Below, in pieces: positions 6,058 to 41,091 of a DNA stretch of 64,000 nucleotides. A model generated the notes under the pieces. That model saw only the letters and a list, made by a program, of their open reading frames with translations. It had not been told where the DNA came from and ran no database searches. Origin of the DNA: a virus; the IMG/VR virus record IMGVR_UViG_3300045988_126140, positions 1 to 64,000 of that record, one strand, 5' to 3'. Numbering within the stretch: position 1 is the stretch's first letter; the number at the start of each line of letters is the position of its first letter. Position numbers and translations under genes: made by a program.

Positions 6058-7194
6058 ATGGAAAGAATAATAAACTTTACTGGGGAACTTGATGCTGAAT
6101 TAGGAAATTATGTAGTTAATGAATTATTAGATATATATGATAAAAATAAAGCTATAATTGAAACAAATGAAAGATTAAAATATCAAAGTGATTATCTACC
6201 ATTATACGCTGATGTAGTAGAATTTAGAATAAATAGTAACGGGGGAGATTTATATAAATTTTTAGAAATATATGATTTAATGGAAAGGATGAAGCAAGAA
6301 CAAGGAATAATATTTAAGGCAAGAACAAGTAGTCACGCTTATTCAGCAGGAATGTATTTGTTTTGTGCTTGCGATTATAGAACAATGAGTAAATTTGGTA
6401 GTTTAATGTATCATGAAATGTCTATGATGAGGATGGATAAATTAAGCGACTTAGAAAGTGAAACAAAAAGAATGAATAAAATACAAAAAATATTAGATGA
6501 TATAGTTACTCGAGATACTGGTCTAACTCAAGAAATTTTGGATAAATATAAAGGACGTGATTTTTGGATAGATTTTGATAAAGCTTTAGAATATGAAATA
6601 ATAAAGGAAGAACCTAGCGAAGAGGAGCGATTAGCAAAAGCATTAGAAGATATGGATAAAGAAGAAATGACAGAATCAGAATGGAACGCTTTTATCGAAG
6701 AGATGAAGGAATTGATTAATATTATTCCAGATAAGCCTACAGAAAAAGAAATACAAGATAAAATAAAAGAAATAGAAGGGGATACAGAACCAGATATGAC
6801 ATTAGGGGAAGCTGTTAAAGAGGTATTAGGCGAAGACTTTAGATGTAATGAAGAAGTTGAATGTGATGAGTTTGAAAATAGATGTTGTTATATGTGTGAG
6901 AACTTTGATAAATGTGATAAATTATGTAAATATGCAGAAAAAGCAGATATATGTGAACATATGGAGAATAAATTAGATGAATTAGATAGTGAATGTGAAA
7001 ATTGCACTTGTAAAGAAAATAAACAAGAAGATATAAAAGAATGTGAGGAACCAACTGAGTGTGGGTTACATCGTGGAACTAATATTTGTTGCCATTTCTG
7101 TCCAGACTTTAATGAATGTACAGACTTTCATAAATGTGCATTCACTGATGACGTCTTTGATTGTGAATATTTAAAAGAACCTTTGGATGACTAA
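6058..7194 (+). CDS. ClpP/S14-like serine peptidase with a C-terminal tandem cysteine-rich extension
   Basis: FRINSNGGD, SHAYSAGMYLF (Ser) and LMYHEMS (His) match ClpP-fold landmarks. The last ~115 aa hold two CC-x2-C-x2-F-x2-C repeats. Confidence 0.65.
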   Translation: MERIINFTGELDAELGNYVVNELLDIYDKNKAIIETNERLKYQSDYLPLYADVVEFRINSNGGDLYKFLEIYDLMERMKQEQGIIFKARTSSHAYSAGMYLFCACDYRTMSKFGSLMYHEMSMMRMDKLSDLESETKRMNKIQKILDDIVTRDTGLTQEILDKYKGRDFWIDFDKALEYEIIKEEPSEEERLAKALEDMDKEEMTESEWNAFIEEMKELINIIPDKPTEKEIQDKIKEIEGDTEPDMTLGEAVKEVLGEDFRCNEEVECDEFENRCCYMCENFDKCDKLCKYAEKADICEHMENKLDELDSECENCTCKENKQEDIKECEEPTECGLHRGTNICCHFCPDFNECTDFHKCAFTDDVFDCEYLKEPLDD

Positions 7195-7260: not shown

Positions 7261-7392
7261 ATGAGCAAATATTGTATTCATTGTAATAAAGAATTAAAAA
7301 ATGGAGAGCTAAGTTATTGTGAAAGCTGTTTTAATAAATTGAAAACTAAAGGAATGTTTACAACTGAAAAAGAAAAAACATCAAAGAAGTAG
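7261..7392 (+). CDS. 43-aa zinc-ribbon protein (CIHC..CESC)
   Basis: ATG follows AGAAAGGAGA. Two CxxC pairs. Below the track cutoff. Confidence 0.5.
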   Translation: MSKYCIHCNKELKNGELSYCESCFNKLKTKGMFTTEKEKTSKK

Positions 7393-7464: not shown

Positions 7465-9366
7465 ATGGATAGACACTGCAAAATTTGTGGGAAGAAACTA
7501 ACGGATGGGGACAATATAAAAAGGGAATTATGTAATAAGCATTATTTACAGATAAAAAAATATGGATTTCCATGGGACGATAATAGAAGAACAGAAATAG
7601 ATTTAAATGAATATGAAGAATATCCTAAACATTATGAAATGAAGTTATATGATGAATTTCAAGAGGAACTAGAAGATAAAGTTTTAATTGATAAAGATGA
7701 TTATGAATTAATAAAAGATATTAGATGGAATAAAAGGAGAACTTCTGTTGTGGCAAAAATTAATGGTAAAACTATACCTTTACAAAATTACATATTAAAT
7801 ACAGACGAAAAAATAAACTTTGTGTCACAAGATATACTAGACTGTAGAAGAAATAATTTATATATTAAAAAGAAAAAAGATAAAAAGCATAAACATTATG
7901 ATATATCTAAAAAGAATAAAGATAAAATTATAATAGATTTTGCAGGGAGTAGTAAAACACAAGTAACAGGGAGTGCAATAATTGTATCTTATCCAGTAGG
8001 TGATAATAAATATGAAAGATTGTTAGTTGAATTTGGACAAAGTCAAGGTAATGGAGGTTTATATGACGAATATAAAGCTAATAAGGGGGTGGTTGATGAT
8101 GTGTTAAGTAGAATAGACAATCTACAAGCTTGTTTTATTCTACATACACATCTTTAACTAGACCATATTGGAAATCTCCCGTCTTTAATAAATAATCATA
8201 TATCAGTACCTTTAATAACTACTAGAGAAAATAGATTACTATTAGAACCGTTATTACTTGATGGGGCATACATAATAGAAAGAAATGTTAAAGCATTGCA
8301 AAAGCAGAAATATAAAGTAGAACCTTTATATAGTGAAAGCGATGTATATCTACTAATGAATAATGTAATAGATAAAGAAATGCATAAAGTATATAAATTA
8401 AATGACAGAGTAAGTTATGAGTTTGTCAATTCTGGGCATATTTTAGGTGGCTGTCAATTGATTCTTTACATAAAAACTCTATCTGGAAACACTAAAAAAA
8501 TTCATATAACATCAGATTTAGGTAGTAATTATAATAAAGCACCATTTGTATTAAAAAGGGATAATATACAATCCTCTAGTGTAAGTATAGTTGAAGGAAC
8601 GTACAATGACTTAGACAGAGGTTTTAAATCTAAAAAACAAGTGGAAAAGGAAAGAATTAAATTAAAAGAAATAATTAAAAAAGAATTAAGTAAAAACAAA
8701 AGAATATTATTTGGGGCATTTGCACAGTCAAGAACTCAAAACTTAATGATATATTTGTATGAATATTTTAAAGACGACCCTAATTTCGATACGAAGATAT
8801 ATGTAGATGGGAAACTATGTCATTCTATTACTAATGCTTATTTAGAAATATTACAAGGTGAAGAAAAAGAATATTTTAGAGAAGTGTTAAATTGGAAAAA
8901 TTTTATTTATGTAAAGGATTATCAAAATAGCTTGAGTGTAGCAACTAATAATGAAAAGAAAATTGTTATCTCTGGTGGTGGTATGTATACACAAGGGCGA
9001 ATATTAAACCATTTAAAAACAATGGTGGAGGATAAAGATTCTACTATTATAATGGTTGGGTATTGTGGAATAGGTACTATAGGTAGAGAACTTCAAAGAA
9101 AAGACAATAAAACTATAAAAATAGAAGGATTAGAATATAAGAAAAAATGCAAAATATATGAAATGAATACTTGGTCATCTCATATAATGGCTAACGAGAA
9201 TATAGATTTTATGTGTAACATAAATACACCGTTAATATTAATACATCATAGTGATAAAGACGGTAAATATAAATTTAGAGATGTTATAGAAGATGAATTA
9301 AGAACTAAAGGTAATAGTGCTAAAATAATAGCAGTCGATGAGAATAATTCAGTGTTTTTTATTTAA
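7465..9366 (+). CDS. beta-CASP metallo-beta-lactamase-fold nuclease with an N-terminal HNH-like zinc module, interrupted by an in-frame TAA at 8155-8157
   Basis: Track ORFs 7465-8157 and 8296-9366 share one frame, and the frame stays open from 8158. Motifs are ..ILHTHL*LDHIGNLP (HxHxDH split by the stop), NSGHILGG, ITSDLG, VEGTYN (beta-CASP A), WSSHI (B), LILIHHSD (C). The N-terminus has CKICG..CNKHYLQIKKYG plus ..DILDCRRNNL. Confidence 0.7.
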
Positions 9367-39795: not shown

Positions 39796-40926
39796 ATGAA
39801 ATCATTAAAAATAAAATTATATCCTACAAAACAACAAGAAATATTATTCTACAAACATATTAATTGTCAAAGATATATTTATAATTGGGCTTTAGGTATT
39901 AACAATGAATTATATAAAGAAAATAAAATGAAATATTCTAGTAATGAATTGTGTAAAATGCTTACTCAATATAAAAAAGATAATACTTGGTTAAATGAAG
40001 TATCTAGTGCAACGTTAAAAGAATCAATTAGAAATCTAGATAAAGCTTATACTAATTTTTATAAAGGTAGAGCCAATTTACCTAAATTTAAGAGTAAAAG
40101 AAAGTCTAAATTAAGCTTTTATAGTAGATATGATAAAATTAAATTTTACCAAAATAATACTGTTAATTTAGAAAAAATAGGTAGGGTAAAATATAAATCT
40201 AGCTATAATATAGATTTGACTCAAATAATTAAATTTAGTAATCCTCATGTATCATATAATGGTAGATGTTGGATATTAACTGTAGGTATAAGTGTAGATA
40301 GTGAAATGCATAAATTAACAAATGAAGTAATAGGAATAGATTTAGGCATAAAAGAATTAGCAATATGTAGTAATGGAATGATATTTAAAAATATAAACAA
40401 AGATTTAACTATTAAGAAATTAGAAAAACGACTTAAAAGATTGCAAAGAAAAGTAAGTAAAAAATATGAATTAAATAAAGAAGGGAGGAGTTATCAAAAA
40501 TCTAATAATATAATTAAACTTGAAAATAAAATAAATAGATTATATCGAAAATTACATAATATAAGATTAAATTATATACATCAAACAACTTCTACAATAG
40601 TGAAAACCAAACCTTGTATGATAGTTATGGAAGATTTATGTATTAAAAATATGATGAAAAATAAATCAATTGCTAAACAAGTTCAAAAGATAGGGTTATA
40701 TGAATTTATTAGACAGATGAAGTATAAATGCGAATGGAATGGTATCAGATTTGAACAAGTAGATAGATATTTCCCATCAAGCAAAATATGTAGTAATTGT
40801 TTTAATATAAAGAAAGATTTAAAATTATCTGATAGAACATATTATTGTGAAAAATGTGGTTTAACTATTGATAGAGATTTTAATGCAAGTATTAATCTTA
40901 TGAATTATGGAAAGTCATTATTATAA
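39796..40926 (+). CDS. tnpB: TnpB (IS200/IS605-family RNA-guided nuclease)
   Basis: N-terminal KIKLYPTKQQE motif. RuvC triad GIDLGIKE (D), VMEDLCIKNM (E), DRDFNASINL (D). Zinc finger CSNC..CEKC. Confidence 0.9.
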   Translation: MKSLKIKLYPTKQQEILFYKHINCQRYIYNWALGINNELYKENKMKYSSNELCKMLTQYKKDNTWLNEVSSATLKESIRNLDKAYTNFYKGRANLPKFKSKRKSKLSFYSRYDKIKFYQNNTVNLEKIGRVKYKSSYNIDLTQIIKFSNPHVSYNGRCWILTVGISVDSEMHKLTNEVIGIDLGIKELAICSNGMIFKNINKDLTIKKLEKRLKRLQRKVSKKYELNKEGRSYQKSNNIIKLENKINRLYRKLHNIRLNYIHQTTSTIVKTKPCMIVMEDLCIKNMMKNKSIAKQVQKIGLYEFIRQMKYKCEWNGIRFEQVDRYFPSSKICSNCFNIKKDLKLSDRTYYCEKCGLTIDRDFNASINLMNYGKSLL

Positions 40927-41091
40927 GAATTTCTATAACATGTAGTGTTTCGTTAAACACGAATTTACGCCTTTGGACTATTAATAACTAGAGTAGGTAT
41001 TTTTCTGAAATAGAATAGAATGAAAAAGGAATGAAGATTTATTTAAGTTTAATTTATAGATTTTTATAGATTTTCGATAACGGTGATAATA
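40927..41091 (+). ncRNA. putative omega RNA (reRNA) scaffold of TnpB
   Basis: About 165 nt of non-coding sequence lies directly 3' of tnpB. It has hairpins (GTGTTTcgttAAACAC at ~40945-40960) and a tandem TTATAGATTTT x2. The location is canonical for TnpB guide RNAs; the fold was not verified. Confidence 0.4.
41082..41091 (+). repeat. right copy of the 10-bp direct repeat GGTGATAATA
   Basis: Identical to 39779-39788. Followed by the leader ATG-TAA at 41095-41100. Confidence 0.9.

Follow-up and report, generated by a model that had tools for sequence, protein, structure and literature searches.

A gene for a beta-CASP nuclease of the metallo-beta-lactamase (MBL) fold is interrupted by an in-frame stop codon inside its HxHxDH metal-binding motif in viral DNA of 64,000 nucleotides (nt) (IMG/VR record IMGVR_UViG_3300045988_126140, positions 1 to 64,000; this whole stretch is called the window below). 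Among related phages the interruption is conserved, variable in length and selected on both sides, and a matched-codon rule holds around the stop across unrelated MBL genes. From these patterns we lean, with moderate confidence, towards a natural, frame-independent short translational bypass (stop-hop), in which peptidyl-tRNA would move to a matching codon 5-9 nt on and the HxHxDH motif would be restored in the protein. The parts of the interrupted gene are the following.

8143 to 8166, plus strand: interrupted HxHxDH metal-binding motif, CAT ACA CAT CTT TAA CTA GAC CAT, read as H T H L stop L D H
7465 to 8154, plus strand: open reading frame 1 (ORF1), the N-terminal 230 codons of the beta-CASP nuclease, from the ORF list and its translation
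8152 to 8154, plus strand: proposed take-off codon CTT (Leu), which would lie in the P site while the stop occupies the A site
8155 to 8157, plus strand: in-frame stop TAA, which is TGA in relatives and TAG in one small-MBL lineage
8158 to 8160, plus strand: proposed landing codon CTA (Leu), which together with the stop makes up a 6-nt gap (8155-8160) that is untranslated if the hop occurs
8161 to 9366, plus strand: ORF2, from GAC (the Asp of DH) to TAA, 401 sense codons, with the rest of the MBL motifs and the beta-CASP domain

ORF1 starts with the ATG at 7465 and ends at the TAA at 8155-8157, and the ORF at 7465-8157 encodes 230 amino acids (aa). It contains a Zn-ribbon, a degenerate HNH_3-like domain and the first strands of the MBL fold, and it ends with ...ILHTHL at the take-off codon. 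An earlier reading made from the letters without database searches (the sequence-only reading) had reported the TAA within the motif, and this was confirmed; it had also described 403 open codons downstream, and the frame of ORF1 is indeed open again from 8158 to the TAA at 9364-9366, but that count includes the stop and the sense codons number 402. When the 6 nt were removed in silico, the resulting 631-aa protein matched Pfam Beta-Casp (PF10996, E=1.3e-23) and aligned over ~400 residues with the solved beta-CASP RNases 8yhd, TTHA0252, aCPSF1, CPSF73 and INTS11. The HTHLDH created by this deletion, as anticipated in the sequence-only reading, fell opposite HAHLDH in the alignment, and the downstream catalytic motifs that it had listed (GHILG, SDLG, SSH and HHSD) are present and invariant across the family. 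The Beta-Casp domain, MBL motifs 2-4 and motifs B and C, by which members of the beta-CASP family are recognized, were all found, motif 2 being contiguous only after the 6-nt removal. The protein thus resembles TTHA0252, aCPSF1, CPSF73 and INTS11 in its Beta-Casp domain and in the aligned region including HxHxDH, but differs from them in an additional N-terminal domain of ~155 aa (Zn-ribbon and degenerate HNH_3-like) and in the interruption of the motif in its DNA.

Residues 1-155 (window 7465-7930) hold an N-terminal CxxC...CxxH treble-clef-like Zn ribbon that matched Pfam DUF2116 (E=0.016). Matches of the family's N-terminal domain to HNH_3 were below threshold (E=9e-5 and 22.5 bits against a cutoff of 24.8 for homolog P0083; here and below, P-numbers are relatives from protein searches and L-numbers are DNA loci), and the family, including P0083 and P0012, looks like a fusion of an HNH-like domain to a beta-CASP nuclease. 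The stop at 8155 is the sole in-frame stop on a coding strand of the window that has at least 100 open codons on either side and no nearby restart codon; the first ATG, GTG or TTG after the junction lies 47 codons downstream. No second copy of the nuclease gene was found within the 64-kb window, which is AT-rich phage DNA (26% G+C).

In related phages of ~135 kb from independent assemblies, the gene is interrupted exactly where it is in the window, after the second His codon and before GAC. The junction contains 5, 6, 8 or 9 extra nt, in seven allele forms.

CTT TAA CTA, 6 extra nt, in frame: the window, L008, L009, L022-24 and L026
CTT TGA AA CTA, 8 extra nt, -1 frame: L001, L013, L025 and L027
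CTT TGA AG CTA, 8 extra nt, -1 frame: L010-12
CTT TGA GAA CTA, 9 extra nt, in frame: L017-20
CTG TGA CTC, 6 extra nt, in frame: L016
CTT TGA AA CCA, 8 extra nt, -1 frame: L015
CTT TGA TA, 5 extra nt, -1 frame: L002-L007

The take-off codon was CTT in six of the seven alleles and CTG in the seventh, and the interrupting stop was TGA in six. CTA preceded GAC in four alleles and CTC in one, the exceptions being ATA and CCA. TGA, the commonest stop of the junction alleles, is nearly unused as a terminator in the window, whose 57 long ORFs end in TAA (40), TAG (16) and TGA (1). ORF1 was 230-234 aa long in all interrupted relatives. A sequencing or assembly error was ruled out: the identical CTT TAA CTA junction was present in at least six other independent contigs, so that the TAA is genuine. 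Read errors are likewise excluded, as the junctions come from many samples and assemblers that are independent of each other.

In the protein search, the closest relatives (68-96% identity) appeared only as C-terminal fragments, and the DNA of each was interrupted. Full-length, uninterrupted relatives were found at 65-69% identity or less with HAHLDH or HTHIDH as the motif; their DNA reads CAT ATA GAC or CAT TTA GAT, in some cases in Terrisporobacter genome contigs. The ortholog comparison proposed in the sequence-only reading therefore showed that relatives keep the interruption, CTT TAA CTA included, and assorted inactivating lesions were not seen. Three alleles with different gap lengths coexist within a cluster of at least 90% identity, where they are intermixed on the tree, and 6-nt in-frame and 8-nt -1-frame gaps are both found among phages whose proteins are 96-99% identical. 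The rescuing mechanism must therefore be frame-independent, and because readthrough and frameshifts fail, the frame-independent options left are a peptidyl-tRNA hop and two separate polypeptides.

Two of the uninterrupted relatives, at 71% identity, are from Terrisporobacter mayombei (L035) and a metagenome-assembled genome (MAG) of Terrisporobacter sp. (L036), and one fragment (P0079) is labelled Sarcina sp. MAG; these contigs and this label are the sole host clues, and they point to low-GC Clostridia. A close relative of the window gene was not found by megablast against GenBank phages. A distant homolog in Clostridium phage c-st (AP008983.1, 160544-161074) matches only query residues 161-344 and overlaps the annotated insertion sequence (IS) ISCbt1-d; that gene copy appears to be IS-disrupted.

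Substitution patterns indicated purifying selection on both halves of the gene. Pairwise ratios of nonsynonymous to synonymous substitution (dN/dS, omega) were 0.12-0.34 for ORF1 and 0.05-0.17 for ORF2, with dS >1 between lineages carrying different alleles, and they were similar to those of uninterrupted genes. Among carriers of the window's TAA allele, ORF2 gave an omega of 0.05-0.11, with dS reaching 0.45. In these carriers the 40 codons ahead of any possible restart had a nonsynonymous proportion (pN) of 0.032 versus a synonymous proportion (pS) of 0.145. The 5-nt allele is common to two diverged lineages (L002 versus L007, dS 1.64, omega 0.10). An ORF1 of at least 229 codons and an ORF2 of 400-401 codons were intact in every interrupted locus of the clade, and no frameshifts or extra stops were found in ORF2 in about 30 independent loci.

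The device also occurs outside this clade, in unrelated small phage genes of the MBL fold that adjoin recT. Both its wide distribution and its link to HNH genes there go beyond what the sequence-only reading had expected. A pattern scan of IMG/VR unexpectedly hit a ~250-aa MBL-fold gene adjoining a RecT-like gene that reads CAT AGG CAT CTT TGA CTA GAC CAT (L049). Further scans were family-agnostic (HxH-CTN-TRA-CTN-DH and HxH-YTN-TRA-YTN-DH), and a hit was taken as genuine when the stop lay in an MBL-fold gene between open stretches of at least 35 codons on its upstream side and at least 90 on its downstream side. The YTN pattern gave 133 matches, 30 in genuine MBL genes and 103 that formed the background. 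The genuine hits comprised 28 small MBL genes (Pfam Lactamase_B and Lactamase_B_2) and two copies from the window clade, in about nine lineages. CTN stood on both sides of the stop in all 30 and TTR in none, although the YTN/YTN scans fixed the second His codon as CAT and would miss interrupted genes combining a CAC second His with TTR codons. Background hits spanned all codon boxes, with CTN/CTN in 27 of the 103. In uninterrupted small-MBL relatives the motif Leu is TTA or TTG in 14 of 29, and it is TTA in P0001, an uninterrupted relative of the window gene; Leu codons of the window as a whole are TTA (71.5%), CTT (9.3%) and CTA (6.9%), among others. The matched Leu codons that the sequence-only reading had noted on either side of the TAA thus follow a general rule.

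A separate lineage (L235) has CTT TAG CTA, so that TGA, TAA and TAG are all found as the interrupting stop, and reassignment of one stop codon is therefore excluded. In three interrupted small-MBL groups, the region after the stop had a pN/pS of 0.14-0.17 at pS up to 0.36-0.62. The interrupted lineages of the Leu type are the window clade, L049, L059, L060, L063, L064, L066, L098, L117, L124 and L235. The second His codon, which would be in the E site at take-off, was CAT in all 28 genuine hits of a scan that permitted CAY; it is CAC in 11 of 15 uninterrupted relatives with a CTN Leu and also in the Gln-type phage phi18:3 described below. The CAT bias could reflect a context effect or co-conversion with the inserted cassette. 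A profile search of protein databases for split small-MBL fragments returned only full-length proteins among the 120 matches listed, and it supplied close uninterrupted relatives.

A further comparison came from cultured Cellulophaga phages, a case that was located by homology (tblastn) and not by codon pattern. GenBank annotates the MBL gene as two coding sequences in phi18:3 and phi46:3 and as one in phi13:2 and phi19:3. Phage phi13:2 reads CAC GGG CAC CAA GAT CAT (HGHQDH), and phi18:3 reads CAC GGC CAC CAA TGA CAG GAC CAT (HGHQ-stop-QDH), which is exactly 6 nt longer with flanks ~94% identical; phi46:3 also has CAA TGA CAG (Q-stop-Q). Because Gln codons lie on both sides of the stop in phi18:3, the rule becomes 'X-stop-X', as a hop needs and as neither readthrough nor a split gene predicts.

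In the proposed mechanism, the ribosome would decode CUU (Leu) and the stop would enter the A site, where termination would compete with dissociation of peptidyl-tRNA-Leu from CUU. The mRNA would then slip, the same tRNA would re-pair at CUA 6 nt downstream, and decoding would restart at GAC. Nine nucleotides would thereby be read as one Leu, giving a single 631-aa chain with HTHLDH and the junction peptide ...ILHTHLDHIGNLPSL...; the peptide diagnostic of the hop in the window would be IDNLQACFILHTHLDHIGNLPSLINNHISVPLITTR, within the 631-aa chain and beside the 230-aa product of terminating ribosomes. The corresponding product of phi18:3 would read ...ACIVTHGHQDHCK. Since re-pairing of this kind would be frame-independent, relatives could hold gaps of 5, 6, 8 or 9 nt.

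Several observations agree with such a hop. The stop follows the take-off codon in the window, in the seven clade alleles, in the 30 scan loci, in L235 and in phi18:3. A cognate landing codon stands right before the codon at which decoding would resume (CTT to CTA in the window, CTN to CTN in 30/30 scan loci, CAA to CAG in phi18:3). Frame independence is seen in the 5-, 6-, 8- and 9-nt gaps, all under purifying selection, and the hop product is the only one that restores the invariant HxHxDH spacing. The in-frame alleles lack a start codon close to the junction, the first one among those of the clade being 10-47 codons downstream, yet Asp-His and the following codons are conserved. What we infer from this is the hop itself as well as its efficiency; the support is comparative throughout, and a number of points weigh against it.

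Landing at AUA in the 5-nt allele, which is old and selected, and at CCA in L015 would need two-out-of-three pairing, and all four -1-frame alleles have a UUG that overlaps the UGA in frame with ORF2, as fits termination-reinitiation. A search for a conserved stem-loop or another stimulator at the junction found none: RNAalifold on eight alleles gave -0.39 kcal/mol, two pairs and no covariation, and Rfam had no match there. Synthetic stop-hops have been reported to be inefficient. The small-MBL cases of the Leu type were found with patterns that require Leu-like codons, which limits the sampling behind X-stop-X. In addition, the C that follows the stop in CTN and CAR landing codons could have been selected because UGA-C is a weak context for termination, and not for re-pairing; as a cause, however, this fails on the take-off side, where the CTN constraint is left unexplained. 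No HNH ORF lies beside the window's gene or that of phi18:3. The peptide ahead of the junction (...CFILHTHL) is conserved, which the MBL fold explains as well as a nascent-peptide signal would. Of the 6-nt hop put forward in the sequence-only reading, recoding is thus favoured by the comparative tests; the fixed length is not, as the gap is 5-9 nt and frame-independent, and the AUA and CCA landings and the UUG overlap leave room for two polypeptides.

The second frame-independent option, and the main rival of the hop, is a split enzyme, in which termination would be followed by synthesis of a separate downstream chain and the two chains would assemble into an active MBL/beta-CASP nuclease. The -1 alleles would use the UUG overlapping UGA, and elsewhere post-termination ribosomes would resume without an initiator. 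In all the -1 alleles (CTT TGA TA; CTT TGA AA/AG CTA; CTT TGA AA CCA), TTGA forms a stop/start overlap in the frame of ORF2, the AAA-to-AAG difference between two of them is synonymous in the TTG frame, and the 5-nt allele has persisted under selection with no matched landing codon. Phage genes that an endonuclease insertion has divided at a metal-binding site are also known to stay functional (bioRxiv 10.1101/2022.08.31.505936). Against this, the window allele, L016, L017-20, the small-MBL cases and phi18:3 are in frame and lack ATG, GTG or TTG at the junction; the first possible start is 5-47 codons on, past the Asp-His ligands, although those codons stay conserved. In the window allele a coupled split gene would find no start codon for 47 codons, the TTGA overlap being confined to the -1 alleles of relatives, and a Shine-Dalgarno sequence is not present upstream. 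The change from the 8-nt gap to the window's 6-nt gap removes the TTG, yet the gene is still under selection, and the CTN/CTN and CAA/CAG matching is left without a reason. A two-chain enzyme is favoured by the -1 alleles only, and we regard it as rather unlikely.

Readthrough, in which a near-cognate or suppressor tRNA would decode the stop and yield a motif lengthened by two residues, HTHL-x-LDH, appears very improbable. The in-frame arrangement that it needs is found in the window allele and throughout the small-MBL cases, and UGA, the commonest interrupting stop, ends just 1 of the 57 window ORFs and terminates weakly when followed by C. Readthrough could not rescue the 8-nt alleles of relatives at 96-99% identity or the 5-nt alleles, however, and the sequence-only reading's alternative of low-level readthrough accordingly fails as a general mechanism. 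UAA, UAG and UGA all occur at the junction, no tRNA gene was found in the window, the HxHxxxDH spacing (2-3 extra residues) was absent from every uninterrupted homolog examined, and the matched codons would be unexplained.

That the gene is inactivated, either as a pseudogene made by a recent 6-bp insertion or with the 230-aa N-terminal product alone functional, has hardly any probability left: the premature stop does sit in the catalytic motif, and GenBank and gene callers do give relatives as two ORFs, but a pseudogene is excluded because both halves are under purifying selection (ORF2 omega 0.05-0.17 over saturated dS, with similar constraint in the three small-MBL groups at pN/pS 0.14-0.17) and the catalytic residues after the stop are invariant. 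The pseudogene alternative raised by the sequence-only reading is consequently dropped. Code reassignment or a suppressor tRNA was rejected on the grounds of one such site in 64 kb, no tRNA genes in the window and the interchange of TAA, TGA and TAG among relatives. Frameshifting and transcriptional slippage were rejected too: a prfB-like +1 frameshift would miss the frame of ORF2 in all alleles, a -1 or +2 frameshift, which the in-frame alleles do not need, would lengthen the motif by 1-3 residues, and slippage would have a T-run of only 3 nt.

Among 29 interrupted small-MBL loci, 15 have an HNH_3 (NUMOD) endonuclease ORF of homing type directly upstream of the MBL gene, against 0 of 29 uninterrupted ones. 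The 15 loci belong to three lineages, and their HNH genes are of two types that are distantly related. For the L066 group, the nearest relatives without an interruption (83-84% identity) share the RecT-MBL-SSB synteny but lack the HNH gene, and they read CAT AAA CAC GCY GAC CAC (HKH-A-DH), while the interrupted genes of the group read CAT AAA CAT CTC TGA CTT GAC CAT. The Leu-stop-Leu unit thus appears to have replaced an Ala codon plus flanking synonymous sites. An origin of the insert by simple tandem duplication of the resident codon was unsupported, the uninterrupted relatives having Ala (GCY) at this position. One interrupted member of the group has ~1.1 kb of extra DNA bearing the HNH gene. 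In L066, compared with L088, the HNH segment has a ~200-nt deletion and the Leu-stop-Leu insert is unchanged; the same comparison revealed that 48 nt from the start region of the MBL gene are present a second time, ahead of the HNH gene.

A reason for the insert is offered by analogy with MobA and gene 60 of phage T4. The DNA spacing of a conserved motif would be changed, for example in escape from a homing endonuclease, and the spacing in the protein would be kept; if the protein is to stay as it is, an untranslated insert may be the only means of altering how an invariant motif is spaced in the DNA. It is conceivable, although we would not call it probable, that phages carry a new class of minimal transferable 'hop cassettes' (5-9 nt) in HxHxDH DNA that direct signal-independent hopping and spread or are kept since they confer immunity to an adjacent HNH endonuclease with the protein unchanged.

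Other features were recorded near the gene and elsewhere in the window. The gene two upstream of the nuclease (6058-7194, plus strand) encodes a ClpP-family protease (Pfam CLP_protease in the L001 ortholog) with a long acidic Cys-rich C-terminal extension, and it is followed by a 43-aa CxxC...CxxC mini-ORF (7261-7392). A RAGATH-18 RNA (RF03064) was matched in Rfam at 40970-41031 (plus strand; 50.9 bits, gathering score 44.9), in the intergenic gap that follows an ORF whose end is at 40926. In L004 (1-2337), the DNA polymerase III alpha gene next to the interrupted gene, on its upstream side, contains an intein (Pfam Intein_splicing and Hint) that L002 lacks; this intein is a further mobile element within the same replication module.

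To our knowledge, natural bypassing is known from very few systems, namely T4 gene 60 and its homologs, one yeast mitochondrial lineage and candidate Streptomyces phages. We found no paper on stops inside HxHxDH. At the +1 shift site of prfB (RF2), CUU UGA C, peptidyl-tRNA-Leu detaches with UGA in the A site, in competition with termination. The junctions resemble this site in having CUU in the P site followed by UGA and often then by C, but in prfB the tRNA re-pairs at the overlapping UUU (+1) and an upstream Shine-Dalgarno is needed, which the junction alleles lack. The closest parallel in design is the set of synthetic stop-hops made in Escherichia coli (Weiss, Dunn, Atkins and Gesteland 1987; O'Connor et al. 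1989), in which 9 nt with matched codons are read as one amino acid; such hops, which need no elaborate signals, were the first bypassing events described, and +5 and +6 events were reported in 1987 (summarised in PMC5009743 and bioRxiv 10.1101/2022.08.31.505936). Both there and in the proposed phage hop, a stop lies between matched codons and the same tRNA leaves the first and re-pairs at the second; the synthetic cases are engineered reporters of low efficiency, whereas the phage device is natural, selected, recurrent across lineages and placed within a catalytic motif. According to a 2016 review, a natural in-frame stop-hop was not known (PMC5009743).

The HNH endonuclease MobA of T4 and the gene 60 insert form one mobile cassette in which the insert shields the DNA from MobA, and in cassettes of this type the endonuclease is often degraded and the insert stays (bioRxiv 10.1101/2022.08.31.505936). 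The MBL inserts are similar in their location at a conserved metal-binding region and in the HNH gene upstream in some phage lineages, which is degraded or lost in others with the insert persisting. They differ from gene 60 in the size of the gap (5-9 nt instead of 50 nt), in a take-off stem-loop that is not conserved here, in the host gene, in the tRNA (Leu or Gln instead of Gly) and, for the window gene, in having no endonuclease gene beside it. In the mitochondria of Magnusiomyces capitatus, many short untranslated inserts (byps) are bypassed, with landing sometimes matched at two out of three positions (PMC5009743). Byps share with the phage inserts their shortness, their omission in translation and this occasional two-out-of-three match, but they occur in many genes of one organellar genome and have an unused A-site codon, whereas the phage inserts are 5-9 nt long, use ordinary stops and lie in one motif in many genomes; byps reportedly measure 27-55 nt (Lang et al. 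are said to have described them in 2014). The nrdA gene of Aeromonas phage Aeh1, split by mobE ('genes in pieces'), is likewise a conserved enzyme gene interrupted in association with a homing endonuclease and still functional; both of its chains have their own starts and interaction tails, whereas the second part lacks a start codon in most junction alleles.

The present survey provides dozens of candidates for natural stop-hops in at least 12 lineages, with natural variation in gap length, stop codon and Leu or Gln codon pairs, and the cultured phages phi18:3 and phi46:3, with phi13:2 as an isogenic-like uninterrupted control, make the question directly testable. If the stop-hop is true, a systematic annotation error would be corrected for genes that are now called as two ORFs or truncated proteins, and an enzyme would be sustained by ribosomes that bypass frequently enough with no elaborate signals. 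Bypass elements would then sit in catalytic motifs for immunity to homing endonucleases, and the phage hop cassettes would be a miniature and recurrent counterpart of T4 MobA/gene 60.

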